64,000 nucleotides of DNA from a virus (Duplodnaviria > Heunggongvirae > Uroviricota > Caudoviricetes), in the IMG/VR virus record IMGVR_UViG_3300027770_000034; one strand, written 5' to 3'. The notes beneath the pieces are model-generated. The model saw nothing but the letters and a program-made list of their open reading frames with translations, did no database searches and had not been told where the DNA came from. Positions 8,615-59,049 of the stretch are shown piece by piece; the stretch's first letter is position 1; each line of letters starts with the position of its first letter. Position numbers and translations under genes: made by a program.

Positions 8615-8967
8615 TGAACAAACCAGAGTACATACAAAATTTAGAATCAAAAGAAGATGTCTTTTCAGTTATGGTTGGCCCAATCCTGAAAGGAGAATTT
8701 TTAAAATTTTTAAATGACAAGAAACTAACAAGAGTTTATGAAAAATCATCAATGAATGAAAGTGGTATTGTAAAATTTGAAGAGGTGATTTTCAAAAGCC
8801 AACAAAACTTTTATTTATGTATTGAAATAAAGGTAAACCCAAATGTGGATACAAGTTTCAATTTAACTATTTATTATAAAACAGGACAATACAGTGAGTT
8901 GTATTTGTTCTTATCACAATTATTAAAACAATATAAAAATGCAACAACTAACAACAGAACAACTTAA
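8614..8967 (+). CDS. hypothetical protein
   Basis: 117-aa ORF coupled to the upstream gene (ATGA overlap). Confidence 0.45.
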   Translation: MNKPEYIQNLESKEDVFSVMVGPILKGEFLKFLNDKKLTRVYEKSSMNESGIVKFEEVIFKSQQNFYLCIEIKVNPNVDTSFNLTIYYKTGQYSELYLFLSQLLKQYKNATTNNRTT

Positions 8968-9262
8968 ACAAAAAATGCAGAATGGGGAAGACTTTGTCTT
9001 GGACTTATTCGCAACATGGTGTGGACCTTGCAAAGTAATGTTAAACAATCTTTCAAAGGTTAATGAATCATTGATAAATGAATCGGCAGGAGCGCCAAAA
9101 TATAGTATCTACAAGTATGACATTGACACAGATAAAGAGTTTGTTATTACTGAGTTAGGTATTAGAAGTGTACCAACCATAAAAATATACAAAGGGGGTA
9201 AAGAGGTTTTTTCAAGACCAGGTGTTATGACTCCAGGAGAAGTATTAAGTTTATTAGATTAA
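8939..9262 (+). CDS. trx: thioredoxin
   Basis: Active-site WCGPC motif with a thioredoxin-fold-length protein of 107 aa. Confidence 0.8.
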   Translation: MQQLTTEQLKQKMQNGEDFVLDLFATWCGPCKVMLNNLSKVNESLINESAGAPKYSIYKYDIDTDKEFVITELGIRSVPTIKIYKGGKEVFSRPGVMTPGEVLSLLD

Positions 9263-9263
9263 T

Positions 9264-9566
9264 ATGAAAGACTTAAATGTAATAGTTTACACAATGAAAG
9301 GATGTCCTTTCTGTGACCAATTCAAGGAAATGTTAGTTAAAGAAAGTATTGAATTTTTTGACAGAGACATTGACAAGTATAAAGATGAGTATGATACCTA
9401 TTCAAAGATAACTGAAAATGATATGATACCAGCTTTACTAATAATTGAAGGAAATGGGAAAGACTATGAGTCATTCCTATATGCACCTGATAGAAACTAT
9501 ATGGAGCTAACTGAAGCTGTTGATATTATTAACCAACATAGAAAGAAAATCGGATTAATTAAATAA
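9264..9566 (+). CDS. glutaredoxin/NrdH-like redoxin
   Basis: N-terminal VYTMKGCPFCDQFKEML (CPxC redox motif) in a 100-aa protein. Confidence 0.7.
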   Translation: MKDLNVIVYTMKGCPFCDQFKEMLVKESIEFFDRDIDKYKDEYDTYSKITENDMIPALLIIEGNGKDYESFLYAPDRNYMELTEAVDIINQHRKKIGLIK

Positions 9567-10440: not shown

Positions 10441-12593
<2,153 letters not shown>

Positions 12594-12594
<1 letters not shown>

Positions 12595-14522
12595 TGGCTA
12601 ATGTAATTATATATCCACAAGGAAATGGTAGTATAACTGACCCATATGTGATGATGGACGACGGTACTGCAAAGATGGCGCTTGATGTTCAAAGTGGTCA
12701 AATTGTAATGTCATCTTCAACAAATGCTAGTTCAACTACAATTGCCAATACTATTATTTCAAGTGGTACGTCAGTAACAGGCAACTTATTTGTTGGTGGT
12801 ACCAAAATGATTGATAATACAGGTGTTTGGGTTGGTCCAACAGCTGGAATTAAAGGGGGTCAAGGTTCTCAAGGAGGACAAGGAGCACAAGGGGCAACAG
12901 GTTCTCAGGGTGCTACAGGTAATCAAGGGGCTCAAGGTGGTCAAGGTTCTCAAGGAGGACAAGGAGCACAGGGGAACATAGGTAACACAGGAGCCCAAGG
13001 TAATATAGGAGCTCAAGGTAGTACAGGAGCTCAAGGTTCGCAAGGGGCTCAAGGGGCTGCAACAGGAGCTCAAGGTAACACAGGAGCTCAAGGAGCTCAA
13101 GGTTCTCAAGGGGCTCAAGGAGCTTCACAAGGTGCTCAAGGTGCTCAAGGTAATACAGGAGCTCAAGGGGCTCAAGGGGCTCAAGGTGCTTCACAAGGTG
13201 CACAGGGTAATGTAGGTAATACAGGAGCTCAAGGTGCTCAAGGTGCTCAAGGTGCCTCACAAGGAGCCCAAGGAAATACAGGTAATACAGGAGCACAAGG
13301 AGCTCAAGGAGCCCAAGGTGCTTCAACAGGAGCTCAAGGAGCTATAGGTAATACAGGTGCTCAAGGTGCTCAAGGAGCTCAAGGGGCGTCAACAGGAGCT
13401 CAAGGAGCCCAAGGTGCTCAAGGTGGTACTGGTTCACAAGGTGCTCAAGGTGCTTCAACAGGGGCACAAGGAGCTCAAGGAGCACAAGGTGGTACTGGTT
13501 CACAAGGAGCTCAGGGTGCTGCAACAGGAGCTCAAGGAGCCCAAGGAGCACAAGGAGGAAAAGGTTCACAAGGAGCTCAGGGTGGTTCAACAGGTGCTCA
13601 AGGTGCTCAAGGAGCTCAAGGTGGTGGAGGTTCAACAGGTGCTCAAGGTGGTTCAACAGGAGCTCAAGGAGCTCAAGGAGCACAAGGAGGAGGAGGTTCA
13701 ACAGGTGCTCAAGGTTCTGTAACAGGAGCCCAAGGTGCTCAAGGTGGTGGAGGTTCAACAGGTGCTCAAGGTGGAAATACAGGAGCTCAAGGAGCACAAG
13801 GTGGTGGAGGTTCTGCAGGTGCGACAGGAGCTCAAGGTTCAACACCAGGTGCACCAGGAAATCAAGGAGCACAAGGCTCAACACAAGGAGCAACAGGTGC
13901 TGCGGGAAGTACTACAGGAGCTCAAGGTTCACAAGGTGGGGGAGGTCCAACAGGAGGTCAAGGAGCCCAAGGTTCTCAGGGAGGTGTAGGAGATGGTGGG
14001 AATACAGGCGCCACAGGTCCTACGGGTCCTCAAGGCTCAACAGGAGCTCAAGGAGGTGGTGGTCCACAAGGTGCTCAAGGAGGTCCAGGTGGTCAAGGTC
14101 CTCAAGGAGCTCAAGGTTCAACAGGACCTCAAGGTGCTCCAGGACCTCAAGGTGCTCAAGGTACTACAGGTCCTCCATCTGACATGAGACTGAAAGATAA
14201 TATCAAAAAAATTGATAATGTTTATTCTAAAACAAAAAGTGTTGAAGGTGTTAGTTTTATATGGGACCATGAGCATACAAAAATTAAAGATGACAAGAGT
14301 ATTGCAGTACAAGAAGCATTTAAAGGGCCAGCGATTGGTTTAATTGCTCAGCAAGTAGAAAATGTGGTTCCTGAATTAGTATTTACTGATGATGATGGAT
14401 TTAAATCAATTGAATATGGTGCGATGGTAAGTCTTGGATTTGGTTCAATACAAGAACAACAAAAAATAATTGATTCTATTTATCAAAGAATAAACAAACT
14501 TAAAGAATTAATAGGTGGCTGA
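12594..14522 (+). CDS. collagen-like tail fiber protein with C-terminal intramolecular-chaperone (Peptidase_S74) domain
   Basis: G-X-Y repeats, then [16 protein letters not shown]...GVSFIWD...[16 protein letters not shown]. Coupled to its neighbours (ATGG overlap). Confidence 0.8.
12840..14170 (+). repeat. collagen-like codon-periodic nucleotide repeat
   Basis: Same repeat class as in fiber gene 1. Confidence 0.9.
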
Positions 14523-16368
14523 AAATATAATAATAACTCCAGCGTCGGGTAAATTTGATTTTTATGATACTGCTAGTACGGTAACTACTTTGGTTATTGA
14601 AACAGGGTCAGTTAAATTTAAAAGAGGAGCAACAACTTACTTGGCTTTTAATTCAACTCAGCCAACAATCACAATTCCAAGTGCTGATTTAAGACTAGGT
14701 ACGTCTTTAATTAATACTTTTGGAACAATTATAGATAGTACAGGATGGAAAGGAGCCGCTCAACCAACAGGACCTCAAGGTAATACAGGAGCTCAAGGTA
14801 ATACAGGTAATACAGGTGCTCAAGGAGCTCAAGGTAATACAGGTAATACAGGTGCTCAAGGTAATATAGGTAATACAGGTGCTCAAGGTAATACAGGTGC
14901 TCAAGGAGCTCAAGGTGGTACAGGTGCCCAAGGTTCAACAGGTGCCCAAGGTTCAACAGGAGGACAAGGCTCTCAAGGAGGACAAGGTGCTCAAGGTGGT
15001 AAAGGTGCTCAAGGTTCAACAGGAGGTCAAGGTGCTCAAGGAGCTCAAGGAGGTACAGGTGCCCAAGGAGCTCAAGGTTCAACAGGAGGTCAAGGAGCTC
15101 AAGGAGCTCAAGGTGGTACAGGTGCTCAAGGTGCCCAAGGAGGAACAGGAGGTCAAGGAGCCCAAGGAGCTCAAGGAGGACAAGGAGCTCAAGGTGCTCA
15201 AGGAGGTACTGGAGGTCAAGGTGCTCAAGGTGCTCAAGGAGGACAAGGAGCCCAAGGAGGTAAAGGTACGACAGGAGGTCAAGGAGCTCAAGGTGCTCAA
15301 GGTGGTGGTGGAGCAATTGGAAACCAAGGAGCACAAGGAGGTCAAGGAGCTCAAGGTGCTCAAGGTGGTGGAGGTGCTACAGGTAACCAAGGTGCTCAAG
15401 GTGGACAAGGTTCACAAGGTACTGCAGGTGGTGGCGGAGCAACAGGTAACCAAGGAGCACAAGGAGGTCAAGGAGCCCAAGGAGCCCAAGGTGGTGGCGG
15501 AGCAACAGGTAACCAAGGAGCACAAGGAGGTCAAGGAGCCCAAGGAGCCCAAGGTGGTGGAGGAGCAACAGGAGCCCAAGGTTCACAAGGTGGACAAGGT
15601 TCACAAGGTGGTGGAGGAGCAACAGGAGCCCAAGGTTCACAAGGTGGACAAGGTTCACAAGGTGGTGGAGGTTCAACAGGAGCCCAAGGAGCTCAAGGTT
15701 CACAAGGAGGTCAAGGTTCACAAGGTGGACAAGGAGCTCAAGGAGGACAAGGTGCTCAAGGTTCACAAGGAGGACAAGGGTCTCAAGGTCCCGCTGGCGC
15801 AACAGGTGTTCCAGGTGGTTCACCAACAGGTGCTACTGGACCAAGAGGTTCACAAGGAGGGCAGGGAGCTCAAGGTGGTGGAGGACCAACAGGGGCACAA
15901 GGTTCACAAGGTGGAGGAGGTGGACAAGGAGCTCAAGGTGGTGGAGGTCCTCAAGGTGGACAAGGAGCTCAAGGTGGTGCAGGTCCCCAAGGAGCTCAAG
16001 GTAACCAAGGAGCTCAAGGATTAATTGGTCCTACAGGTCCTTCAGACATTAGATTTAAAAAAGACATTAGGCTTTTAAAAGATTCAATAAAGAAAATTAA
16101 AAAAATTAGAGGAGTTAGTTTCTTTTGGATTAAAGACGGTGAAAATCCTGATATAACAAAAAGAGATATTGGATTTATCGCTCAAGAATTGAAAGTAGCA
16201 TTACCTGAGGTAGTAGTTGGAGAAGAACCAAAATACCTTACTGTAAAATATCAAGATATAGTGGCACTTTGTATTGAAGCAATTAAAGAACAAGCATTTG
16301 TAATAGAAACAAGTTTAAATAAGTTAGAAAAATTAGAATTAATAGCAAAAGAAAAGGGACTAGTTTAA
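14515..16368 (+). CDS. collagen-like tail fiber protein with C-terminal intramolecular-chaperone (Peptidase_S74) domain
   Basis: G-X-Y repeats, then [15 protein letters not shown]...GVSFFW...[15 protein letters not shown]. Confidence 0.8.
14760..16030 (+). repeat. collagen-like codon-periodic nucleotide repeat
   Basis: Same repeat class as in fiber gene 1. Confidence 0.9.
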
Positions 16369-16381
16369 GTCCCTTTTTTTA
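16356..16381. terminator. bidirectional Rho-independent terminator
   Basis: GGGAC TAGTTTAA GTCCC plus T7. It lies between the convergent fiber operon (+) and the minus-strand gene block. Confidence 0.7.
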
Positions 16382-17217
16382 TTTATAATACTTTCAATTT
16401 CATCTTTTGTTTTATATAACATTGTTAAAAATCTTGGCCAGATTTTTGGATTATATTTTTTAATTAATTGAATATAATTTAAGAAATAAGGAATATCGTT
16501 CGGCATTTTAATGTAATCAGCCAAATGAGGGTTATTTGTAATTAGGTCATCCAACACTTTGCTAATTTCATTATCATTAACATACTCATCATTAATCTTG
16601 TAAAGAATATCAGTTGAGACTTTAGTAAGTTTTTCGCCTTTAGCGAAATATCTTAATATGTTTTTAAATGATTTATTAAGATATTTTCTATTATCTTCAT
16701 TTCTAATTCTTTCAGACCTTCTTTTAAATTCAAGAACTAAACCTTCCAAAAATTCATTTGTTATTGCAAAGAATTCAATTGGATGTCCCCAATATTGTTC
16801 ATCCGATTTTTCGTTATAAGTTGTTTGATATTTTTGATTTAATTTTGTTGTTTGAGTTGGGTCAATTGCATGAATCAATTCATGGTATAATGTTAAATAA
16901 AGATTCTTTTTTGATTCATAAAACTTTGGATTAACTTCAATGAAGACATCCATAGGGTCTCTTGAATCTTTTGGCTTGGTTCCCATATAACCGATATACT
17001 TTAATCTTGGATTAACTCTAAGTTGAACTTGTCCTTGAGTTCCGTCTTTTAAAGTTATTGGTATGTAGTCAACAATTGTTTTACCTTTGTATTCTATATT
17101 TCTGTCATTCCAAAGTTTATCTACAACAGAATGAATTTTGGCATAAGTCTTTGGGTCAAACTTATGTCTTTTTTGTTCGGTAATAACATCAGATAATATC
17201 GGTATGAATTTTATCAT
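16360..17217 (-). CDS. hypothetical protein with HExxH motif (putative zincin-like metallopeptidase)
   Basis: YHELIHAID motif. 285 aa. Confidence 0.45.
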
Positions 17218-18005
17218 TTATCTAAATCCGTGCTCCAATCTATTGGAATTCTTTTTGGTTTAATCTTTCCTGAATAAGAATCAAATGTTTCTTTAAAAGG
17301 AAGTTGGGCTTGTTTGATATCTTTGATTCTTGTCATGTCATCACCGATACCTGTAGATAAATATGCTTGAATCTCATCATCCACAACATTATCACCATAA
17401 CCCATTCCTGTTATCTTTTTGGCAACAGAGTTTCTAACACGAGGTTCCATTCTTTCAATATTTCTATATTGCTTTGCTTTATAAACTGAATTAACAAACC
17501 ATAACCCGTGAGCAACCTCATGAAAAATTAATGATGGGTCATCACCAGTTGATTGGTCAATACCAATAAGGTAATAGTTATCACCACCAACCTTGGATTT
17601 AATTGTATCAACAACACTGAACATAATTAAATCATAGAAATTAATGTCAGGAATTTTTGCAATACAAGATTCAATTGAAGTACATGGGACATTGTAACCA
17701 GCCCAATCTTCATGATATGAGAAATAATCCTTCTTTGTCTTCTCTTTATAAAACTTAACGTAGTCTTGCCATTTGAAACCTTGACCTCTAAATGAATCTG
17801 AATCTGATTCGTAGAATTCTTGGTATCTCATGAATACTCTGGCTCTTAACTTATCATCTTTAATGACAAGTGCATAAATCTTTGGATACATCTCAAACAA
17901 TTCAATCTGACCTAAGATGTTCTTAATATTCTTTGGCGGAGTTTTACGTGGGGTAAATCCTCTTTGTTCTTCAAGAATTCTTAATATGTTATTAACTATA
18001 TTCAC
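17214..18005 (-). CDS. hypothetical protein with HExxH motif (putative zincin-like metallopeptidase)
   Basis: IFHEVAHGLWF motif. 4-nt overlap with the downstream gene. Confidence 0.45.
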   Translation of the reverse strand: MNIVNNILRILEEQRGFTPRKTPPKNIKNILGQIELFEMYPKIYALVIKDDKLRARVFMRYQEFYESDSDSFRGQGFKWQDYVKFYKEKTKKDYFSYHEDWAGYNVPCTSIESCIAKIPDINFYDLIMFSVVDTIKSKVGGDNYYLIGIDQSTGDDPSLIFHEVAHGLWFVNSVYKAKQYRNIERMEPRVRNSVAKKITGMGYGDNVVDDEIQAYLSTGIGDDMTRIKDIKQAQLPFKETFDSYSGKIKPKRIPIDWSTDLDK

Positions 18006-29629: not shown

Positions 29630-29702
29630 CGTGAGGTAGAGCAGTGGTAGCTCGGAAGGCTCATAACCTTTAGGTCGCGAGTTCGAATCTCGCCCTCGCA
29701 AC
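29630..29702 (+). tRNA. tRNA-Met (CAU anticodon), initiator-like C1:A72 mismatch
   Basis: Cloverleaf read by hand. Acceptor CGTGAGG/CCTCGCA has a C1-A72 mismatch. D arm GAGC-AGTGGTA-GCTC. Anticodon stem GAAGG/CCTTT with loop CTCATAA. T arm GCGAG-TTCGAAT-CTCGC. No encoded CCA. Confidence 0.85.
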
Positions 29703-29904: not shown

Positions 29905-30916
29905 AGTGAAGAGAAGGGGTAGTAAAGGTTCCAAGTTTACTTGGTCGTAAAGTTTCCCCTTTTCTTCATTCTTTAAAAAGTTCTTTGAATAAAAATATTG
30001 TCTGTTCAGAATGTTTGATGATGAGACCTTCGGGTTGATTTTGAGTAACAAACTGATAAGATATATTGGGCGGTCTATAGTCCATAAAATAAACCATGAA
30101 AGTGGTATAAAGTGATTTGTTCTTGATTGGAACGGTTGCGGCTTCGGAAACGGAGCTCGAGTAGACAAACGAGATATCATCTGACCTTTAGTATTGAGGG
30201 TAACACTGTAGGGAAAGTGGTTAGATGACTAAGCGATGTGGGTCGTTTAGTTGAGGTGGGAACACCGATAAGAATAACTCGTAGGGCTGTTGTAAGAAGT
30301 ATGGTCGTCCAACTATACAATTGCGGAGTTCAATATTAGAGTAGATTTAAAACCGAAAGGTAAGAGTTCGTACAGGTGGTGCTGTTGTTCTCCTTATCAG
30401 AGACCTACCAAGGTTTCAGTTATGAAATAGACTCAAAGTATGGAGGTCGGGAGACTTCAAGGTGTAGTTCAGCATTGTCTCGTTCAAAAGATGGGGCATC
30501 TGGTTTGACGAACCGCTACATCTATCATCCACAAATCAAACTTTTACTTTCAAATGGTGAAAACTAAAATAAATAAAAGGAAAAGTGTTCGTCAGTCGTG
30601 GTAGACAGGTCACTACTTAGTCATGAGTTGTTCATGGCCGTAAAGGGTCCCAAACCCGATACGATTGTTTTGAAAGTTCTCTAATCCCGCAAGGATGAGT
30701 TTGGGTGGCAACCTAGAAGAGTGATGAGTAAGAATAGAGTATATTACGACTTTAGGATTGGTTAATCTAATTGACCGTGACTGAGAGGTACTTCTCAAAA
30801 GGAAGTGGAAATCGGAGGAAACAATAATCTCCTGTAAAGTCTCTCACAAGATGGTGTATTCTCAACCTATTTTGCCTTAACCCTGTCCGTTTCTACGGAT
30901 GGGGTTTTTTGTTTTT
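29905..30916 (+). ncRNA. candidate large structured non-coding RNA (about 1 kb)
   Basis: About 1 kb with no plus-strand ORF above 63 aa in an otherwise roughly 90 percent coding genome. GC visibly above the surrounding sequence. Many local hairpins with tetraloops: GACCTTCGGGTTG, CGGCTTCGGAAACGG, ACCGAAAGGT and TCCCGCAAGGA. A long stem GAAGAGAAGGGG...CCCCTTTTCTTC sits at the 5' end. Ends in a strong intrinsic terminator. Confidence 0.45.
30881..30916 (+). terminator. Rho-independent terminator
   Basis: CCCTGTCCGT TTCT ACGGATGGGG hairpin plus TTTTTTGTTTTTT. Confidence 0.65.
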
Positions 30917-41022: not shown

Positions 41023-42172
41023 GAAAACCAAAATATGTTTAAACGCAATGGTTGGCAATGAAGCCAAGACCATTCTAAGAATGCTAGAGTCAGTGGCTCT
41101 TCACATAGATTATTGGGTCATCCAATGCAATGGCAAAGAAGATAATACAAGTCAAATTATTAACGAATTTTTTGACGAACAAGGAATTCCTGGATTTACT
41201 TATGAAACTGATTGGAATTATCCAGGATTTAATAGAGACCACACTCTTCAAGAAGCACTTAAAGCTGACCACGGATGTGATTGGATTTTAAGAATGGATG
41301 CTGATGAGAGACTTCACGTTGATGAGGATTTTGATTGGTCATTACTTGATGATACATCAGTACAGAGTTATAATATGGGCGCTGAGGCTGGAGATACAAA
41401 ATATTTCAGAACATGGTTTTGGAATAGTAAGTTACCATGGTTCTTTCAACATGACAAAAGACACGAAACAATTCATTTACCTGAAATTGGTGAAGGGTTC
41501 CAAAGAAATAATATGCCTTGGGGATTTAGACACAAGGTATCACAAGATGGTGAGACTTGGCACGTACCAAGAAAGTTTTTGAATGATGCTTTAGAATTAG
41601 AAAAAGATAAAGTTGTTGGGTATAAAGTTTTAGAAGATTATTATCATTTGTGGTATATTGCTAAAAGTTATGCCGATAGTTATGGAAATCCAGATGAATT
41701 ACCTTTTGGTAAAATTCATTCTGATGAATATGCCAGACGTTCAATATGGTACTACGAAAGATTCTTAGAATTAACACATGATTGGAGTAATTCAAAAACT
41801 GCTAAAGGTAAAGACGAAATGTGTTATTATGCGTTGATTATGATGGCACATGCACATAGTTTTATTGGAAATATAAAAGAAGCTGAAGAACATTTTTTAT
41901 TGGCTGAACAATTTCAACCTGAAAGAAATGAACACTTGGTTTACTTGTGTATCTTTTTAGAAAATGAGGGAAGACAAAATGATATGATGCAATATATTGA
42001 CAAAATGTTACAATCCGAAAGAGTAAATCCGTTTCCAAATCTAAGTTTTTTAATTGAAAACAGGGCTTATTATAATACAGGAGATTATCTAATTAAACTT
42101 AAAGAAAAAATTCAAAAAAAATCCGAAGAGTTTTCAATTAATTTAGATTCCATTACTTTTGATTTCAAATGA
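41015..42172 (+). CDS. GT2-like glycosyltransferase with C-terminal TPR-like region
   Basis: N-terminus KICLNAMVGNEAKTILRMLESV resembles the ISLCMIVKNEE signature of TPR-containing GT2 enzymes. C-terminal helical-repeat region. Overlaps neighbours by 8 and 4 nt. Confidence 0.55.
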   Translation: MNKKTKICLNAMVGNEAKTILRMLESVALHIDYWVIQCNGKEDNTSQIINEFFDEQGIPGFTYETDWNYPGFNRDHTLQEALKADHGCDWILRMDADERLHVDEDFDWSLLDDTSVQSYNMGAEAGDTKYFRTWFWNSKLPWFFQHDKRHETIHLPEIGEGFQRNNMPWGFRHKVSQDGETWHVPRKFLNDALELEKDKVVGYKVLEDYYHLWYIAKSYADSYGNPDELPFGKIHSDEYARRSIWYYERFLELTHDWSNSKTAKGKDEMCYYALIMMAHAHSFIGNIKEAEEHFLLAEQFQPERNEHLVYLCIFLENEGRQNDMMQYIDKMLQSERVNPFPNLSFLIENRAYYNTGDYLIKLKEKIQKKSEEFSINLDSITFDFK

Positions 42173-43284
42173 TTTTAATGAAAAAACCATATGATTACTT
42201 AATAGTTGGAGCGGGACCTTATGGTTCCGTTTCTGCGTATGAATTAACCAAGAGAGGTAAGAAATGTTTGGTCATAGATAAACGTGATGTTATTGGTGGT
42301 AATTGTTATACTGAAAACGTAAACAATATTCATGTTCACAAATACGGAGCACACATATTTCATACCAACGACAAATATATTTGGGATTACGTAAATCAGT
42401 TTGCCGAATTTAAACAATATACACATAATGTTATTGCGAATTACAAAGGAGAAATGTACACACTCCCATTTAATATGTGGACATTCAATCAATTGTGGGG
42501 TGTTAAAACTCAAGAAGAAGCCGAAGCAATCATTGAAAAACAAAAATACAAAGGTAAAATTCAAAACCTTGAAGACCAAGCAAGGTCAATGGTTGGCGAT
42601 GATGTATACGAAAAACTTATCAAAGGGTATACAGTCAAACAATGGGATAAGCCATGTTCAGAGTTACCACCATCAATCATCAAAAGACTCCCAGTAAGAT
42701 TTACTTGGGATAGTAACTACTTCAACGACAAGTATACTGGGATGCCTGTTGGGGGTTATACTCAAATATTTGAAAAGATGTTAAATTGTTGTGAGGTTAA
42801 GTTGGGTGTAGATTATTTTGAAAATAGGGATTATTATGATAGTCTTGCCGACAAAGTTATCTACACAGGACCAATTGATAGATATTTTGATTACCAGTTT
42901 GGTAAGTTAGAATATAGGAGCCTAAAATGGGAAACAGAAATACTTGAGAAAGATAATTTCCAAGGAGTTCCCGTGGTAAACTATACTGACTTAAAGATTT
43001 CATATACAAGAATATTAGAACATAAGTGGTTTGACCATCAGAACCAAAAGGGTACAATTATTAGTTATGAATATCCTGCCGCTTACGATGGTAAGAATGA
43101 ACCATATTACCCTATTAGAGACGATAAAAACACTCAGGTCTATACCAAGTATCAAGAACTAACTAAACCTCTTAAAAACGTTTATTTTGGGGGTAGATTG
43201 GCGACGTATGTTTATTATGATATGCATCAAATAATTGCTCAGGCATTAAAGATGATAGGGCACCTTGACGAATCTGAAAAATAG
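42169..43284 (+). CDS. glf: UDP-galactopyranose mutase
   Basis: YDYLIVGAGPYGSV (FAD Rossmann GxGxxG), KCLVIDKRDVIGGNCYTE, IHVHKYGAHIFHTNDKYIWDYV and LPFNMWTFNQLWG parallel Glf along its whole length. Confidence 0.9.
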   Translation: MILMKKPYDYLIVGAGPYGSVSAYELTKRGKKCLVIDKRDVIGGNCYTENVNNIHVHKYGAHIFHTNDKYIWDYVNQFAEFKQYTHNVIANYKGEMYTLPFNMWTFNQLWGVKTQEEAEAIIEKQKYKGKIQNLEDQARSMVGDDVYEKLIKGYTVKQWDKPCSELPPSIIKRLPVRFTWDSNYFNDKYTGMPVGGYTQIFEKMLNCCEVKLGVDYFENRDYYDSLADKVIYTGPIDRYFDYQFGKLEYRSLKWETEILEKDNFQGVPVVNYTDLKISYTRILEHKWFDHQNQKGTIISYEYPAAYDGKNEPYYPIRDDKNTQVYTKYQELTKPLKNVYFGGRLATYVYYDMHQIIAQALKMIGHLDESEK

Positions 43285-43964: not shown

Positions 43965-44390
43965 ATGATATTTATAATCATGAAACTCGTTCTAAAAAAT
44001 TCAAACAAATTATTTGACACAACTCAAAATGAGACTGTTAAAGAGTTTGTTAAATTTATCAGAAAACAATTACCCCTTCAAAAAGACACCACTGTTACTT
44101 TTTTAGAAAAACGTGACCAATCAATGACTACAGGCGTTAGGAGACCTAATAGTGAAATTTTTGTGTTGACCTCCAAAAGATTATTAATTGATGTGTTAAG
44201 AACTTTAGCCCACGAATGGGTACATGAATACCAACATCAAAAAATGGGACTTGAGGACGACAAACCTGTGCAGGATATTGGTGGTAAAGTAGAAAACATG
44301 GCAAATGCTTTGGGTGGTATTATGGTAAAAAAGTTTGAAAAAGAGTTCCCTAAATATGAAAACGCATTATACGGAGAACATGAATCTTAA
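43965..44390 (+). CDS. SprT-like HExxH zinc-metallopeptidase-like protein
   Basis: RTLAHEWVHEYQH motif. Confidence 0.45.
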   Translation: MIFIIMKLVLKNSNKLFDTTQNETVKEFVKFIRKQLPLQKDTTVTFLEKRDQSMTTGVRRPNSEIFVLTSKRLLIDVLRTLAHEWVHEYQHQKMGLEDDKPVQDIGGKVENMANALGGIMVKKFEKEFPKYENALYGEHES

Positions 44391-54695: not shown

Positions 54696-55055
54696 TTAGC
54701 AGCGTTCTCTACCATCAAAATAAAACTCGGTGCACTCAACATAAAAATAATCCTTTAATAAGTCATGCATTTCATCGTACTCAATACTACCAATACTCTC
54801 ATCATCATAAAAATAAGGATGAAGACCGTCCATTAACACAGTAAAGAATTTCTTTTCAAACTTTTCGTAATCATCAATTCTACAAATATCAGACTCCATA
54901 AGCTCAAAGGCCTCTTTCAATTCCTCTTTAACCAAATTAAATCTTCTCTTAATCCAAAAGAGAGACTTCTGATTAATGACTCTATCATATTGTTCTTCTG
55001 TTATTATTATTTTCATAAGATTAAACGGTGAATATATCAACATAGTCACGACCAT
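54696..55055 (-). CDS. hypothetical protein
   Basis: 119-aa ORF. Confidence 0.45.
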   Translation of the reverse strand: MVVTMLIYSPFNLMKIIITEEQYDRVINQKSLFWIKRRFNLVKEELKEAFELMESDICRIDDYEKFEKKFFTVLMDGLHPYFYDDESIGSIEYDEMHDLLKDYFYVECTEFYFDGRERC

Positions 55056-55308
55056 TCGTAACTTTATTATCCAAAGAGGACATTTTAAAAAGAGTTCTTA
55101 TATCATTCTGTATTTCTCTCTCGTCATTAACGGTATTAGTTCTTAAAAAGACTCTATACCTTCTAACGCCTCTAAAAAAATCCGACGTAATATCAATATC
55201 TTCTATCTCAGGATACTTTGGCATAACGATGGTCTCAATTATTCTCCTAAGAACATCTTCTTTTTCTTTCCAATTAATCATGATAATAAATACTTTATGA
55301 TTATACAA
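55021..55308 (-). CDS. hypothetical protein (paralog of 55558..55854)
   Basis: LRRIIETIVMPKYPEIEDIDI parallels LKKILNIMVPEKYPMVSRIQV in the next gene. Confidence 0.45.
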   Translation of the reverse strand: MYNHKVFIIMINWKEKEDVLRRIIETIVMPKYPEIEDIDITSDFFRGVRRYRVFLRTNTVNDEREIQNDIRTLFKMSSLDNKVTNGRDYVDIFTV

Positions 55309-55557
55309 TTAATTCACTCAGTTCGGGACAAAAACAATCCACTACACTACGTTCCGTGGATGTCCCTCACTTCCTTCATTAATAGTATAATCCTGTACCA
55401 AAATTATAATAACCTGTTGTGGATAAATTATAATAACGTGTCATATAAGGGATAACCGCATCGGTAACATGTGTCGTATAAGACGCATTAACTCGTGATG
55501 TATGCTCATTCACCATGTCTCCGACATTCATGTCGGGAACATCCTTTAAATTCATCA

Positions 55558-55854
55558 TTACCAATGTTCGGGGTTAAAGAAAACAACCCGTAAAGTTTCA
55601 TCACCTTTTAAAACATAACGTGACACCTCTTCTATATAATCGCGAACGTCTGAACTTCTTAATCTTTCTAACTCTTCAGGACCAACTCCCAAATATATGA
55701 GATAATTAATACCATTACTATATTCGGATGAATCATCAATTACCTGAATACGTGAAACCATAGGATACTTCTCAGGTACCATTATATTAAGAATCTTTTT
55801 AAGTGCAATATATGTGTTGTCCATAATAGTAAATATATATCCCCCACCAAACAT
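55558..55854 (-). CDS. hypothetical protein (paralog of 55021..55308)
   Basis: 98 aa. Shared KYP-containing segment. Confidence 0.45.
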   Translation of the reverse strand: MFGGGYIFTIMDNTYIALKKILNIMVPEKYPMVSRIQVIDDSSEYSNGINYLIYLGVGPEELERLRSSDVRDYIEEVSRYVLKGDETLRVVFFNPEHW

Positions 55855-56469
55855 ATTGTCCCCACTCCTTATCAGTCGGGGGTGATAAACACCCCACTAT
55901 ATGAGTGAACATATGAGATGGTGATGTAATGTGTCAGCCCCTAACTTTACCAAACCACCCTACGGGTCAAGCTATAAGTTGACTTTTGACAATAAATAAG
56001 TTGTAGACATGACTACAAAAATTAGGACTTCGTCTTAAAACTATAGTCATAACTATAACCACATTTTCCCACTCTCACTTCGTTCGGTGGGGTTCCACCA
56101 CCATACATGAGATGTTCGCCCTTGGGGACTCCCTTAGGGTCGGTCTACGACACTGTAATCACCCATACGAGGAGACATCTTAGACAAGATTTCGTTGAAG
56201 AAATACTCTCTAAGGTTCCCTAAAGGGAACTCCACGGCTCTCACACTTACTATTCCTTTTTTAGCCAAGTTTCTTATATACTAAAAAACTGGTCGTGGCG
56301 GGGTCACTACAGGGGAAAAAGTGGTCTTTTAACATACGTGGGGACTATTTCGGTGGTAAAAAGTGGGATTATATGTTAGTGAGTGTAGGTCCAAAAGTGG
56401 GGTGAGGGATTATCCCCATCGTAACGAGTCCCCTGACATTATGACAAAACCAAATATTTCCCTATAAAG

Positions 56470-56478
56470 TTATCCACA
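56470..56478 (+). promoter_or_regulatory. DnaA-box-like 9-mer TTATCCACA (within 13-mer AAAGTTATCCACA)
   Basis: Exact match to the bacterial DnaA box consensus. First of five copies between 56.4 and 58.0 kb. Confidence 0.5.
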
Positions 56479-56527
56479 TCCCCACCTTTTTTTCCACCCT
56501 GTCATAGCGTCATGTGGAAAACTTAAT

Positions 56528-56536
56528 TGTGGATAA
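56528..56536 (-). promoter_or_regulatory. DnaA-box-like 9-mer (inverted orientation, TGTGGATAA)
   Basis: Reverse complement TTATCCACA, 50 nt from the first box. Confidence 0.5.
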
Positions 56537-56548
56537 GTTTATTTTTAT

Positions 56549-56836
56549 ATGTTCCTAACTTATACTTTATGGTACATGGACAAACTGACATATGAATTAA
56601 CTCACTTAGAGCAAGACCGTATAAGGATTATTGTTACTATGATGGGTGGGGAAGTGGAACTCGGTACACTATATTTTGAGAAAGCCAAGAGGTCCTTCTC
56701 AAGGAAACCTGTGGGGATGGACCAATGGGCGTGTGTGGATGCGAAGGTGGAAGGGTTGTATATTCATGGTGGGGATAACATTACTCCCAAGGATATTGTG
56801 GCACATTGCCAAGCATTGATTAAAGCTTCTGTTTAA
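56549..56836 (+). CDS. hypothetical protein
   Basis: 95-aa ORF in the GC-elevated region. Confidence 0.4.
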   Translation: MFLTYTLWYMDKLTYELTHLEQDRIRIIVTMMGGEVELGTLYFEKAKRSFSRKPVGMDQWACVDAKVEGLYIHGGDNITPKDIVAHCQALIKASV

Positions 56837-57242
56837 TATCATTCCAACAAACACTATAGAGATTCTCCATACCACGTGCTTCCAACTCCTGAGGATGTTT
56901 ATCATACCCCACCTTTGACAAGACATTATTATACCAACGAAGGTTCTGTAGGTAGTGAGCATATTCATGAAGGACAGCACGGACCACACACTTAACGGTG
57001 GGGGAATAATTCCTGAACACCATAATGGTCCGAGTATTATAATCATATACACCACAGGCGGGGATGGACTTAACCCCACGAGTACGAACACTATAGTTAA
57101 CAGGTCGAGACTTGGTCCCCACATTTGTTTCGCACCATCTAATTGTCTCGCACACGATGGACCTAATCTGACGAACGGTTAGTTCAGAGGTTGGGGTCTT
57201 TAAGTATGTCTTCATGTCACGAAGATACGAAATATCCCCCAC
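56820..57242 (-). CDS. SprT-like zinc metallopeptidase
   Basis: AVLHEYAHYLQ (HExxH) followed by HPQELEARGME. The upstream GV..Y......IMVF architecture is typical of SprT/WLM-like proteins. Confidence 0.55.
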   Translation of the reverse strand: MGDISYLRDMKTYLKTPTSELTVRQIRSIVCETIRWCETNVGTKSRPVNYSVRTRGVKSIPACGVYDYNTRTIMVFRNYSPTVKCVVRAVLHEYAHYLQNLRWYNNVLSKVGYDKHPQELEARGMENLYSVCWNDIKQKL

Positions 57243-57424
57243 AAAAATAAATTTGTTTATATGGAGAAAAGGGCGTACCTTTGTATTACGCCCTGACCAT
57301 TAATTGGTGGGGTGACAACAGCCTACCTCTGATTTCTTCAGCTGACAACTTGCCCCCGCCCGTTCTACACTCCCGCTTCGAACAATACAAAGGAACGACT
57401 ATTTATTGATATAACCAAATAAAG

Positions 57425-57433
57425 TTATCCACA
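57425..57433 (+). promoter_or_regulatory. DnaA-box-like 9-mer TTATCCACA (13-mer AAAGTTATCCACA)
   Basis: Abuts the ATG at 57433. Confidence 0.5.
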
Positions 57434-57891
57434 TGGCAGTAGACTATCCAATGACATACGAACAACTCATAGACAACTATGAGTTTAAGATTGCAAAGAA
57501 AATGCTCCTAAGAGAATACCCATGGATTAAAGACGTGGTTATAAGAGAAGATGAGATAAACAAATGGAACCTTATCTTCTTGGACGTTACCATTGACCCA
57601 TATGAGTTGGGGAGACAAGAGGATTGGACCGTTGCAAGATACTTGGATAGAAGCATTAGAGAGGTCGGTGAGTATTGGTCCCCATACTTATCCACGTTCT
57701 ATAAAGATGTTATGTGGGAAGACGCAAGACCACTACAAGATAGTATTAACAAGTCACTTGAATCAATCCATACTTCCCCCGCCCTTCCCGAAGAACTACG
57801 TCTACCTGGCACAAGAAAGTTTCAGGTGGGTTCATGGTATACTTACCCCACCAGCATCACCCCCGAAGATACAACCAATAGTTCAGACTAA
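57433..57891 (+). CDS. hypothetical protein
   Basis: 152-aa ORF. Confidence 0.45.
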   Translation: MAVDYPMTYEQLIDNYEFKIAKKMLLREYPWIKDVVIREDEINKWNLIFLDVTIDPYELGRQEDWTVARYLDRSIREVGEYWSPYLSTFYKDVMWEDARPLQDSINKSLESIHTSPALPEELRLPGTRKFQVGSWYTYPTSITPEDTTNSSD

Positions 57892-57900
57892 CAAACTTAT

Positions 57901-57909
57901 TTATCCACA
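57901..57909 (+). promoter_or_regulatory. DnaA-box-like 9-mer TTATCCACA
   Basis: Fourth copy. Confidence 0.5.
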
Positions 57910-57950
57910 TTAGTGGTTGACAACATGACAGGAGGGGAGGGTCAATAAAG

Positions 57951-57959
57951 TTATCCACA
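57951..57959 (+). promoter_or_regulatory. DnaA-box-like 9-mer TTATCCACA (13-mer AAAGTTATCCACA)
   Basis: Fifth copy, followed by poly-C tracts. Confidence 0.5.
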
Positions 57960-57961
57960 CA

Positions 57962-58045
57962 CTGCCCCCTATACCCCCCTCTTGGGTGGGGATAACCCCC
58001 CCTCCCCCCGTATCCCCCCTTACTATACTGTCAGAATGTCATTTG
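57962..58045. repeat. homopolymeric C/G tract cluster
   Basis: CCCCCT ATACCCCCCT ... GGGGATAACCCCCCCTCCCCCCGTATCCCCCCT ... TTTGGGGGG. This is exceptional in an AT-rich genome. Confidence 0.8.
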
Positions 58046-58120
58046 GGGGGTATAATACCTTGAGTTACGCAAATAAATTTTTGGGAAAAAAAATGACCTT
58101 TCTTGGGTATTTATTTGAAT

Positions 58121-58438
58121 ATGAAATACATTATATCTGAATCAAGATTTGAAAGTTTGATATTGAATTATCTTAATGATTCATTGAAAAATATTAAATC
58201 ACATTCCGAAGAGATTGATGGTGAAGAATATAATTGGTGGGGTACTGAAGGCACTCCTGTATTTGTTCTTAAACATGTTAAAGATAAACTTGGAATTGCA
58301 TTTGATGAACAATATGTTTCTTCAATGTGTGATTTATTTGGGATATCCGATTACGAGGTTAAAACTTATATTTTAAGATGGATTAACTCAGAGTTGGATA
58401 TTCACCCTGAATTCACAATTAAACAAGAAATGTTTTAA
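58121..58438 (+). CDS. small hypothetical protein with conserved N-terminal motif
   Basis: MKYIISESRFESLILNYLN. A terminator follows directly. Confidence 0.45.
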   Translation: MKYIISESRFESLILNYLNDSLKNIKSHSEEIDGEEYNWWGTEGTPVFVLKHVKDKLGIAFDEQYVSSMCDLFGISDYEVKTYILRWINSELDIHPEFTIKQEMF

Positions 58439-58452
58439 GATTTATAAAACAA

Positions 58453-58483
58453 GACCCTCTTCAATTACGAAGGGGGTTTTTTC
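58453..58483 (+). terminator. Rho-independent terminator (repeat family A)
   Basis: AAGACCCTCTTC AATTAC GAAGGGGG plus T6. Near-identical to the terminator at 59062. Confidence 0.75.
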
Positions 58484-58545
58484 ATTTAAAAATTTTTTTG
58501 GAAAAAAATGACCTTTTGAATATATTTATAATAAAATAATTTAGC

Positions 58546-59049
58546 ATGGGAAAAATAGTAAGATTAACAGAACAAGATTTAGTTCGTTTGGTAAATAGAG
58601 TAATTAAAGAACAATCATTATCCGATTATGCTTCTGAATTAGGTAAGAAAGTAAAATCGTATGGTCAAAACTTAGCAGGAAAACTTCCTCCGTATTGGGG
58701 AAAATTAAAAAACATGAACCCTAAACCAACAGTGGAGAAATCAAATCTTTTACAAAAAACTTTGGGAGGTGCTGCAGAAATGTTACAGTGGGAGAATGGA
58801 GATAATGTCTTGGGTGTACATTCGGACGGAACGGTTGAAATCCTTATTGGAGCTGGTGTAGCAGGTCCTAATGGTTTATCAGCTAAACAACAAAAACAAA
58901 TGGATTCTGTTGGAAGTATTTTGAGAACTTTTGGTATGACTCCTAAATGGGAACAATTACATGAAGGACAAATGTATGTTGAGATTAAAGGTTTGAACCC
59001 AAATCAAATATTCACCTTGGTGAATACCTCCTCAAAGTTCCTTAAATAA
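58546..59049 (+). CDS. hypothetical protein, IRLTExDL N-terminal family
   Basis: MGKIVRLTEQDLVRLVNRVIKEQS, shared with 25976 and 59712. Confidence 0.5.
   Translation: MGKIVRLTEQDLVRLVNRVIKEQSLSDYASELGKKVKSYGQNLAGKLPPYWGKLKNMNPKPTVEKSNLLQKTLGGAAEMLQWENGDNVLGVHSDGTVEILIGAGVAGPNGLSAKQQKQMDSVGSILRTFGMTPKWEQLHEGQMYVEIKGLNPNQIFTLVNTSSKFLK

Follow-up and report, generated by a model that had tools for sequence, protein, structure and literature searches.

At promoters regulated by DnaA, such as those of dnaA, nrd and mioC, and in the activation of lambda pR, the DnaA box lies across or beside the start site, and occupancy by DnaA tunes transcription. Iterons and DnaA boxes also mark the origins P1 oriR, pSC101 and oriC, and ColE1 is an RNA-primed origin with RNA II. 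GOLLD and ROOL are highly structured noncoding phage RNAs of several hundred nucleotides, and to our knowledge their functions are still unknown. The injection-stop (iss) region of T5-like phages is a large conserved untranslated region with TTATCCACA and the variants TTATCCCCA, TTATCAACA and TTATTAACA, which is not thought to be an origin; in T5 its eight boxes lie in the terminal repeat, in pairs 3 bp apart within four inverted repeats with a 52-bp spacer (bioRxiv 10.1101/866236).

The window analysed here, a stretch of 64,000 nucleotides of viral DNA, contains a module of 2.2 kb that is conserved in a family of ~300-kb freshwater jumbo phages. The module forms an island with a GC content of 42-43% as against 32% for the genome (0.42-0.44 at 56-58 kb, ~0.32 elsewhere), and the GC3 of its ORFs is 0.44-0.51, compared with 0.25 ± 0.05 in 37 other genes. 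The exact 9-mer TTATCCACA occurs six times in the window, at 56470(+), 56528(-), 57425(+), 57901(+), 57951(+) and 55418(-), where 1.06 copies are expected and none of 100 shuffles reached six. Five of the six fall inside the island, where box spacings are 15, 50, ~480 and ~900 nt. When one mismatch is allowed, the island has 10 boxes in its 2.2 kb, or 4.4 per kb, as against 0.45 per kb elsewhere, and the 16-mer AATAAAGTTATCCACA is found within the window only in the island, even with up to one mismatch. The box is essentially missing from the remainder of the window and thus specific to the module.

A preliminary description of this DNA, made from its letters, had reported the GC-rich island and the five 9-mers inside it and had missed the copy at 55418. 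It was right that the 9-mers are not random and also that they are functional. In related loci, 359 kb contain 258 exact copies, where 4.4 are expected. Its counter-case, a 9-mer equally frequent throughout the genome, is not what the scanned window contains, since the copies are concentrated in the island. The 13-mer that it listed (AAAGTTATCCACA) is present three times, and its hairpins are all there: GGGGTGATAAACACCCC (GGGGTG-ATAAA-CACCCC) at 55879-55895, GTTCCCTAAAGGGAAC at 56215-56230 and GGGCGTACCTTTGTATTACGCCC at 57271-57293. The same holds for its C and G runs, C5-C7 and G6 within 57965-58050. As it had suspected, their lengths vary, with C6-C9 and G6-G8 among near-identical strains; C7TC6, C6TC7, C8TC6 and C9TC6 all occur, and loci with an identical ORF131 carry G6, G7 or G8, although sequencing error may contribute. 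These variable tracts are noncoding. The C tracts of the right end could form G-quadruplexes on the minus strand, and the same end has CTGTCA-17-TATAAT, with one G tract adjoining the outward TATAAT at 58051-58056. Its phrase “nearly gene-free” fits only one part of the island: on the plus strand no ORF of at least 40 aa starts between 55855 and 56548, but three conserved ORFs occupy 56576-57891, and the ORF-free part is conserved noncoding DNA with covarying RNA helices. The features are collected in Table 1.

Table 1. Features of the island and its left flank, in coordinates of the 64-kb window.
Feature	Coordinates	Strand	Remarks
Sixth TTATCCACA	55418..55426	-	outside the GC-rich island; TATAAT directly before; flanked by a 17-nt direct repeat; within conserved noncoding block 55299-55490
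Left-edge motif ATATCCCCCACCAAA (TATCC[CCC]AC core)	55837..55851	+	conserved in every lineage; borders the RNA region on its 5' side; second copy at 57232-57246
Large structured RNA gene/region, ~0.55 kb	55895..56430	+	ends approximate
Hairpin H1, three stacked helices, C(UACG)G or C(UUCG)G cap	55932..55991	+	per-sequence folds, covariance model, alignment, pair counts
Hairpin H2, three stacked helices, UUCG-type cap	56000..56059	+	per-sequence folds, pair counts
Middle domain: GUUGAA-loop hairpin (56189-56204), then GUUCCC-UAAA-GGGAAC, i.e. GTTCCCTAAAGGGAAC (56215-56230)	56179..56230	+	stem covaries
G-rich 3' domain, sequence-conserved	56283..56404	+	four AAAAA(C/G)TGG repeats at 56283, 56312, 56352, 56391
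Invariant block GGGATTATCCCCA (with 1-mismatch box TTATCCCCA), then CCCCTGACATTATGACA (TGACA-N3-TGACA direct repeat)	56406..56446	+	
Box slot 1, TATAAAGTTATCCACA	56463..56478	+	AAGTTATCCACA invariant in 31/31 homologues; ATGACA 18 nt upstream of TAAAGT
Inverted TGACA pair TGTCATAGCGTCA, then tandem minus-strand boxes TTTTCCACA (56513-56521) and TTATCCACA (56528-56536)	56500..56543	-	
ORF86 (listed as ORF95 from 56549; probable start 56576)	56576..56836	+	small conserved protein, in all islands examined
ORF131, 131 aa, HExxH (listed as ORF140)	56820..57215	-	motif HEYxHYLQNLRWY..HPQExEAR invariant
Conserved intergenic segment	57232..57432	+	motif ATATCCCCCACAAAA; hairpin GGGCGTACCTTTGTATTACGCCC (57271-57293); long-range complementarity 57251-57287 / 57384-57420
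Box slot 2, AATAAAGTTATCCACA	57418..57433	+	final A = A of the ORF152 ATG
ORF152, 152 aa	57433..57891	+	conserved alpha/beta protein, AF2 pLDDT 90.5
Box slot 3: TTATCCACA (57901), TGACAACATGACA (57918-57930), AATAAAGTTATCCACA (57944-57959)	57901..57959	+	
Conserved right end	57960..58056	+	C5, C6 and C7-T-C6-GTAT-C6 tracts; inverted 1-mismatch box 57987-57995; TGTCAGAATGTCA; G6, then outward-facing TATAAT

The ORF-free stretch is an RNA gene on the plus strand, for which the covariation proof is limited to the first third, the 5' hairpins. The RNA region is conserved as well as or better than the flanking ORFs, and 31 homologues were found at 45-95% identity. When each was folded separately, the same two long hairpins, capped by UNCG loops, appeared in 31/31 of these diverse homologues despite their differing sequences. 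In the model-based alignment 89.6% of the cells pair, compared with 20-38% in slid controls and 72.6% in shuffles, of which 0/500 came up to the observed figure, and 23 of the 37 pairs show double compensatory changes. Best supported are the outer and middle helices of H2 (helices 4 and 5), with changes on both sides in 14/14 pairs and 92-99% of the cells pairing. Compensatory pairs are also present in the unfitted MAFFT alignment. Paired columns contain G.U 40 times and A.C 14 times; because of this excess and the UNCG loops, the RNA is read from the plus strand. The full MAFFT alignment gave a poor RNAalifold consensus (-13 kcal/mol) in which the variable hairpins were misaligned, a problem solved by the separate folds and the covariance model, and single-sequence z-scores of about -1.9 on both strands did not discriminate.

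Further downstream, the GUUCCC-UAAA-GGGAAC stem has the covariants GGUCCCC/GGGGACU and GGUCUCC/GGAGACU, and the layout of the middle domain differs by lineage. A proposed pairing of the 3' domain is kept in 93% of the cells, but variation there is too low for covariation, and this domain could be an RNA structure or else a DNA-level site such as iterons. A search of 55200-58600 against Rfam 15 (including GOLLD, ROOL, HEARO and OLE) returned nothing at gathering score and, up to an E value of 5, only three chance-level matches. The ~0.55-kb RNA is previously undescribed. Elsewhere in the window, at 30460-30868, there is a GOLLD RNA.

Searches of the island ORFs and their neighbours against Pfam and PHROGs gave nothing significant. 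ORF86 had neither a family match nor an HTH match. The predicted model of ORF131 resembles a minimal zincin; the comparison with Pfam, including Peptidase_M78, returned only sub-threshold hits to DUF3920 and DUF6647, and no adjacent HTH regulator was found. ORF131 is missing in some divergent islands and thus dispensable. The fold predicted for ORF152 has a weak, non-specific likeness to KH-like RNA-binding folds, and in all ORF152 homologues gene callers place the start at the box-overlapping ATG. ORF131 has 212 homologues and ORF152 has 147, all of them metagenomic and uncharacterised. Paralogy between island and flanking ORFs, suspected from “KYP..I” motifs, had no BLASTP support.

The module was found in more than 100 freshwater viral contigs, nearly always in one and the same neighbourhood, which is kept across deep divergence (55% amino-acid identity); the gene order is the same in 92 loci, and mostly the flanks are too. 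The RNA is always accompanied by ORF86 and ORF152. Among the carriers are IMG/VR contigs of 309-321 kb, and several long contigs hold the module in their interior with no sign of a terminal position. No match was obtained in a DNA similarity search against 50,697 phage records, and a scan of IMG/VR for the 15-mer ATAAAGTTATCCACA was uninformative, with only single matches per contig at about the estimated chance level. The module is absent from the genomes that represent 185,579 bacterial and archaeal species, where six hits to the TGACA pattern are about as many as estimated for chance, and prophage copies gave no host assignment. The hosts are probably Bacteroidota, because of promoter and Shine-Dalgarno statistics and a fit to published bS21 phages: the remaining genome seems to use Bacteroidota-type TTTG/TAnnTTTG promoters and lacks Shine-Dalgarno sequences. 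The Bacteroidota sigma-A pattern (TTTG at -33, TAnnTTTG at -7) was seen upstream of other window genes in 5/82 cases as against 0/120, and it is absent at the island boxes. Contig ends cluster at ~58040-58061 and ~56407-56412, and many short contigs stop at the island edges. Genome termini or an invertible segment were considered as the cause and rejected, since the ends coincide with the edges of invariant blocks common to co-occurring strains and other contigs read through; we take them for assembly breaks of the kind that mixtures of strains produce. The ultra-conserved blocks would explain why assemblies of these phages break at the island, which could serve as a marker locus for this abundant freshwater family.

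At homologous slots the 9-mer core is invariant and the flanks vary. Among the boxes of the related loci, 200 lie on the strand of the unit and 58 on the opposite strand (78% vs 22%), the latter with no obvious unit downstream. An ATG shares its A with the end of the box in 35/171 distinct contexts, and in 16 more the ATG lies 3 nt further on; in 109/171 there is no ATG near the box. In some lineages the box also abuts the AUG of ORF86, and copies follow each plus-strand unit as well. In divergent lineages most slots switch together to TTATCAACA/TTATTAACA or to TTTTCCACA, and some lineages have only 0-1 consensus boxes.

Position, orientation and this behaviour by lineage favour what the preliminary description had offered as its alternative, a promoter-type element, and from them we infer a role of the boxes in initiating or controlling transcription as well as the kind of factor that binds them. 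The boxes would be start-site-proximal promoter or operator elements specific to the module, with either host DnaA or a phage factor as their binder, and we give this reading about an even chance of being correct. TTATCCACA is the invariant core of a longer element with the consensus CCAAATAAAG-TTATCCACA-T, one copy of which stands immediately 5' of each plus-strand unit. A putative -10-like TAAAGT precedes the final A by 7 nt, and a TGACA repeat is found 16-18 nt further upstream; where slot 1 has lost 10 nt, a spacing of ~17 nt is regained through the other TGACA copy. Transcription from the final A would give ORF152 a leaderless mRNA, since its start codon begins with that very A. With host DnaA as the binder, the box would be an operator that couples the module to the initiation state of the host; the other candidate is a co-evolving phage factor. 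As a rough split, the phage factor is the likely binder and DnaA the distinctly less probable one.

Several observations temper the promoter/operator reading. The -35/-10 likeness is weak (9/12), and a promoter scan gave 14 hits compared with 10.9 in shuffles and thus no enrichment. The 109 contexts that lack a nearby ATG and the 58 opposite-strand boxes also speak against it. Since the rest of the genome looks Bacteroidota-type, a sigma-70-like reading of the island elements may not apply in the host. In addition, the exact identity with the DnaA box, with variants that match the “DnaA*” boxes of T5 or do not stray far from the relaxed DnaA consensus (TTTTCCACA, TTATTCACA), would be an unexpected coincidence for a phage-specific promoter. 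It is conceivable, although rather unlikely, that the island is a self-contained RNP module in which a new class of large structured RNA, ORF86 and the KH-like ORF152 work together and every unit is wired to the replication-initiation state of the host via DnaA-box operators, or in which the RNA primes a DnaA-assisted phage origin or forms its R-loop. If this were true, a phage of ~300 kb would control an RNA-centred device by means of the universal DnaA box.

The preliminary description had put a DnaA-dependent origin or a DnaA sink first, and some observations speak for it. As a phage replication origin, the island or its part at 56.28-56.56 kb would recruit host DnaA or a phage initiator through the boxes, four phased AAAAAGTGG iterons and the T-rich tract, and a priming R-loop, as in ColE1 RNA II or mitochondrial CSBII, would be helped to form by the C/G tracts and by the structured, G-rich transcript. 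The box cluster (consensus TTATNCACA) is indeed conserved in related loci, as are the four AAAAAGTGG repeats, 29-40 nt apart; gene orientation turns divergent at the island, as it also does at the loci L122 and L123; its noncoding DNA is conserved more than the genes; and at 56.29-56.42 kb the RNA-like strand has many G clusters, with the C7TC6 tracts at the right end. Cumulative GC skew, one of the checks that had been proposed, has a local minimum at ~58 kb, but the skew follows the gene strand and is positive over the first 45 kb, with no window-wide switch. For the adjacent AT-rich DUE, another proposed check, the candidates are a T7 tract (56482-56498) and an AT-rich stretch (56536-56560); repeated AT-rich 13-mers are absent among the repeat families. 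Boxes that abut start codons, are mostly co-oriented with the units and drift together within a lineage fit an origin poorly. Phages of ~300 kb usually encode their own replication apparatus, and Pfam and PHROG searches that covered the island, its surroundings and the scanned ORFs at 1-44 kb recognised no initiator, helicase or primase. We regard an origin as improbable on balance. Binding of host DnaA without an origin, either as a datA-like sink that depletes free DnaA and blocks host initiation or as a membrane-DnaA tether as modelled for the T5 injection-stop, appears quite unlikely. The box core is identical to the DnaA consensus, TTATCCCCA, TTATCAACA and TTATTAACA are variants catalogued in the iss of 25 T5-like phages, and the region is full of repeats, inverted repeats and palindromes; however, a sink requires neither a fixed start-codon register nor a strand bias, the paired arrangement of T5 is not seen, lineages with 0-1 consensus boxes persist, and the island lies inside long contigs.

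The motif might instead act at the RNA level, with AAAGUUAUCCACA(UG) either controlling translation as an operator or marking where an endonuclease cuts one long transcript into AUG-starting mRNAs, and with the KH-like ORF152 as a possible binder. Its position at the AUG of ORF152 and, in some lineages, of ORF86, the copies behind each plus-strand unit and the constant company of RNA, ORF86 and ORF152 would suit such a role. With 22% of the copies on the opposite strand, no conserved structure context around the motif and only a non-specific fold similarity of ORF152, we think it has a slim chance of being true. Least probable is a recently acquired mobile element or satellite of foreign composition, with the motifs as its termini or integration sites. 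Such an element would account for a GC content and GC3 far from those of the host genome, for a motif set unused elsewhere in the window and for the short contigs that end at the island edges. It is largely refuted by the synteny across deep divergence, by the lack of an integrase, a transposase or terminal inverted repeats in the island, and by the lack of copies in bacterial and archaeal genomes, and the contig breaks are those that strain mixtures give at the edges of ultra-conserved blocks.

Compared with known systems, ORF131 shares with ImmA, IrrE, PprI and CapP an invariant HExxH...E and a core of a helix, a three-strand sheet and the HExxH helix, and PprI and CapP are among its weak structural matches. 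It differs from them in having no Pfam match to these families, Foldseek E values of 0.03-0.5 and no recognised HTH partner, and in being dispensable in some lineages. Like P1 oriR, pSC101 and oriC, the island has boxes with a T-rich tract and phased direct repeats beside them, and a structured transcript of ~0.55 kb ends nearby, as does RNA II in ColE1; unlike those origins, it has its boxes in ATG register and lacks an adjacent Rep gene, 13-mer DUE repeats and a demonstrated skew switch. With the T5 iss it has in common a conserved phage region dense in repeats and palindromes that holds the consensus box and the same variants, but its boxes occur singly or in tandem, lie mostly on one strand and directly at gene starts and adjoin a structured RNA gene, and its TGACA-N3-TGACA repeats are a different motif. 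Should the favoured reading hold, the T5-like phages would be joined by another, independent phage lineage that conserves perfect DnaA boxes, along with the same variants, in noncoding DNA remote from a recognised origin, and the use of DnaA boxes by phages would become directly testable. DnaA-regulated promoters resemble the module in a box at or adjoining the start site, which is here predicted from sequence; the module differs in that every unit has a box, that the box co-varies by lineage and that the promoter context is not the usual type of the host. The RNA, finally, is comparable to GOLLD and ROOL in its length and in being highly structured, with proof for the 5' hairpins only. It has no sequence or structure match to Rfam families, and its neighbours are dedicated small protein genes instead of tRNAs. 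If this holds, a new large structured RNA would join the short list of ornate phage RNAs, and its co-inherited protein partners and defined flanking signals would make its function more tractable.

Metagenome searches returned 212 homologues of the minus-strand HExxH protein of the GC-rich island (ORF131, listed as ORF140), all uncharacterised, and 147 homologues of ORF152. A set of 92 loci encoding them was used for comparison. All have a common gene order: an ORF-free block, a small plus-strand ORF, the convergent HExxH ORF, a plus-strand ORF of about 150 codons and a right end with C/G tracts. Most of these loci also carry homologues of the window flanks, including 55299-55392, 55433-55839 and 57999-58114, and one (L133) matches window 55000-58061 at 100% identity. 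A search pattern based on conserved noncoding sequence of the module brought up 20 IMG/VR contigs, 5 of which are 309-321 kb long. The module was not found in representative genomes covering 185,579 species of bacteria and archaea. Contig edges cluster, with many contigs ending at about 58040-58061 or beginning at about 56407-56412. Since these break points match the edges of invariant blocks and other contigs run through them, we attribute them to the assembly of mixed strains. Just left of the island, the noncoding element 55299-55392 has inverted-repeat arms of 32 nt and 76-95% identity across loci whose neighbouring genes are more divergent; a further RNA or a regulatory site may lie here.

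The noncoding segments of the island are conserved as well as its ORFs or better, and a multiple alignment contains stems whose sequences differ wholly between lineages. Separate folding of 31 homologues (45-95% identity) produced the same pair of long hairpins in each case, H1 and H2, both in three parts. A covariance model built from 3 close sequences was used to align 20 diverse ones. On this alignment 89.6% of the cells hold standard pairs, compared to 72.6% with shuffling (observed value attained in 0 of 500 rounds) and 20-38% when the partners were slid by 1-3 columns. Double-sided changes affect 23 of 37 pairs, in 104 cells. Covariation extends to every one of the 14 pairs in the two main H2 helices. 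The 20-sequence alignment was fitted to the model. The folds of individual sequences do not depend on it, nor do the compensatory pairs visible on an unfitted MAFFT alignment. G.U exceeds A.C in paired columns by 40 to 14 and the caps are of the UNCG type, and the RNA was thus assigned to the plus strand. Further 3', the closing stems of a hairpin with a conserved GUUGAA loop covary, as does the stem of GUUCCC-UAAA-GGGAAC, a hairpin picked out in the preliminary description. Almost no variation is seen in the 3' third (56240-56430), which holds four AAAAA(C/G)TGG repeats. A candidate pairing in it is formed in 93% of cells at very low sequence variation, and this part could be an RNA structure or a DNA-level site. 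The RNA region had no Rfam 15 match at the gathering score or at E up to 5. We conclude that the 0.6 kb without ORFs represents an RNA gene. Its product is a large structured RNA not described before, inherited together with small proteins within a family of freshwater jumbo phages. The phage carries a second large structured RNA, a full-length GOLLD RNA (RF02032; 328 bits, E 3e-93) at 30460-30868 (+), some 760 nt 3' of the gene for a tRNA-Met(CAT) (29630-29702).

Features of the island, with window coordinates
Feature	Position	Strand	Remarks
Hairpin H1	55932-55991	+	individual folds of 31 homologues; cap C(UUCG)G or C(UACG)G
Hairpin H2	56000-56059	+	individual folds of 31 homologues; cap C(UUCG)G or C(UACG)G
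Box slot 1	56463-56478		3' of RNA region; recurring across loci
ORF86	56576-56836	+	conserved small ORF
ORF131	56820-57215	minus	invariant motif HEYxHYLQNLRWY..HPQExEAR
Box slot 2	57418-57433		0-3 nt 5' of ORF152 ATG; recurring across loci
ORF152	57433-57891	+	
Box slot 3	57901-57959		3' of ORF152, 5' of C/G-tract element; recurring across loci
Right end	57960-58056		C/G tracts; 80-86% conserved

The GC content at 56-58 kb is 0.42-0.44, against about 0.32 in most of the window. The preliminary description had correctly called the region GC-richer, and the hairpins and C/G runs it listed are both present, but "nearly gene-free" does not describe an island with three conserved ORFs and an RNA gene. 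GC3 is 0.44-0.51 in these ORFs and 0.25 +/- 0.05 in 37 other genes, so the shift reaches synonymous sites too. The hexamer CCCCAC/GTGGGG is 18-fold enriched at 55830-58070 (18 copies, and 27 in the other 61.8 kb), on both strands and in coding and noncoding sequence alike. A family search detected no family for ORF86. The structure predicted for ORF131 with moderate confidence combines a helix and a three-strand sheet with the HExxH helix, and may resemble minimal zincins such as selecase, PprI, CapP and SPRTN, to which the structural matches are weak (E 0.03-0.5). ORF131 is missing or truncated in divergent islands, which retain the RNA, ORF86 and ORF152: it is undetectable in six loci that keep the other three (L223, L227, L233, L235, L237 and L238; contigs of 48-309 kb), and a remnant of 61 residues is left in L236. 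HExxH motifs also occur in three other window proteins, at 16360-17217(-), 17214-18005(-) and 43965-44390(+), the last with LAHEWVHEYQH, similar to the motif of ORF131.

All five TTATCCACA 9-mers, identical to the consensus DnaA box, that had been noticed in the island were found again, together with a sixth exact copy at 55418(-); 1.06 copies are expected in the window, and 0 of 100 shuffles attained 6. The 9-mer is not equally frequent elsewhere: allowing one mismatch, there are 10 boxes in 2.25 kb of island (4.4 per kb) and 0.45 per kb in the rest of the window, and the 16-mer AATAAAGTTATCCACA (at most one mismatch) is found solely inside the island. The related loci (359 kb in total) contain 258 exact copies versus 4.4 expected from base composition, nearly all at recurring positions inside the island or next to it; 200 share the strand of the RNA, ORF86 and ORF152, and 58 are on the opposite one. 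Some lineages have an extra box touching the ORF86 ATG. The 9-mer forms the invariant core of the boxes, and in slot 1 AAGTTATCCACA is shared without change by 31 of 31 sequences. Information around the box extends upstream (CCAAATAAAG-TTATCCACA-T), with no conservation downstream. In 35 of 171 distinct contexts an ATG begins with the last A of the box, and in another 16 it lies 3 nt beyond; gene callers place all starts of ORF152 homologues at the box-adjoining ATG. A -10-like TAAAGT ends 7 nt 5' of this last A, with a TGACA-N3-TGACA repeat upstream. In slot 1 the second TGACA is separated from TAAAGT by 18 nt; where a lineage has lost 10 nt, the first TGACA sits about 17 nt away instead. Most slots hold TTATCAACA or TTATTAACA in divergent lineages and TTTTCCACA in a further one. 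Another motif, ATATCCCCCAC(C/A)AA, stands at the head of the RNA region (55837) and of the conserved segment 57232-57432. The minus-strand sixth copy is preceded by a perfect TATAAT and flanked on either side by a 17-nt direct repeat, AAATTATAATAAC(C/G)TGT; this arrangement (55401-55441) is also present in L133 and L159.

What the boxes do is a testable question. We give an even chance to the reading that they are promoter or operator elements of the module, close to its start sites. Their register with start codons, their strand bias (200:58) and the joint change of most boxes within a lineage are expected of module-specific elements of this kind, but not of a replication origin or a sink for DnaA. 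Sigma-70-like features are weak here and may not apply in a Bacteroidota host. Under the promoter or operator reading the binder would probably be a phage factor; host DnaA is the less likely candidate. On that reading, however, the exact identity to the DnaA box would be coincidence or mimicry, and likewise the variant spectrum, which matches that of the "DnaA*" boxes of T5-like phages.

A DnaA-dependent replication origin, preferred in the preliminary description together with DnaA titration, seems unlikely to us. It still draws some support from four repeats in phase, T-rich tracts, genes that diverge in orientation (as in L122 and L123 too), the G-cluster-rich transcript and the C7TC6 tracts, which would lend themselves to R-loop priming. 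So it does from a local GC-skew minimum, but skew in the window follows gene strand, and no replication gene was recognised near the island. A DnaA sink or tether, of which the register, strand bias and joint change are likewise unexpected, we hold to be improbable; the chance that the boxes act on RNA, as operator or processing site, is similarly slim. Least probable is a mobile element, as the location of the island is conserved across loci, which rules out a recent insertion.

At the right end, near-identical strains differ in tract length (C7TC6, C6TC7, C8TC6, C9TC6; G6/G7/G8), which supports the earlier remark on slipped-strand variation, although sequencing error is possible. The minus strand here is G-quadruplex-capable, and a consensus TATAAT, 17 nt 3' of CTGTCA, faces the rightward genes. 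Two copies of a 40-nt element, AAATTTTTGGGAAAAAAAATGACCTTT... (58075-58114 and 58490-58529), precede the first genes (58103, 58546) of a tandem small-gene array at 58.1-61 kb. Most of its genes are followed by an intrinsic terminator, and at least two products open with IRLTExDLxRLVxRVIxEQ. Three loci (L225, L226, L232) have many more copies of the array unit.

Elsewhere, three consecutive fibre-like genes at 10441-16368 (+) have long collagen triple-helix repeats, and the purine-rich blocks of 54-57% GC at 11-16 kb are due to these genes. The two that were scanned both end in a confirmed Peptidase_S74 chaperone domain at the C terminus. The window also holds auxiliary genes typical of very large phages (2492-3412, 8939-9566, 42169-43284 and others): a full DnaJ, thioredoxin, glutaredoxin, two DNA methyltransferases, APS kinase, cobalamin adenosyltransferase, NUDIX, a Band-7 protein, UDP-galactopyranose mutase and several GT2 glycosyltransferases. 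Outside the island, the window lacks Shine-Dalgarno sequences, has intrinsic terminators and is enriched for TTTG-N17-21-TAnnTTTG 5' of genes, which points to a putative host among the Bacteroidota. Freshwater "bS21" phages have genomes of 293-331 kb with 31-33.7% GC and predicted hosts in the Bacteroidetes (PMC9723584). In a fit that falls short of proof, the present phage resembles them in size, GC content (32%) and habitat.
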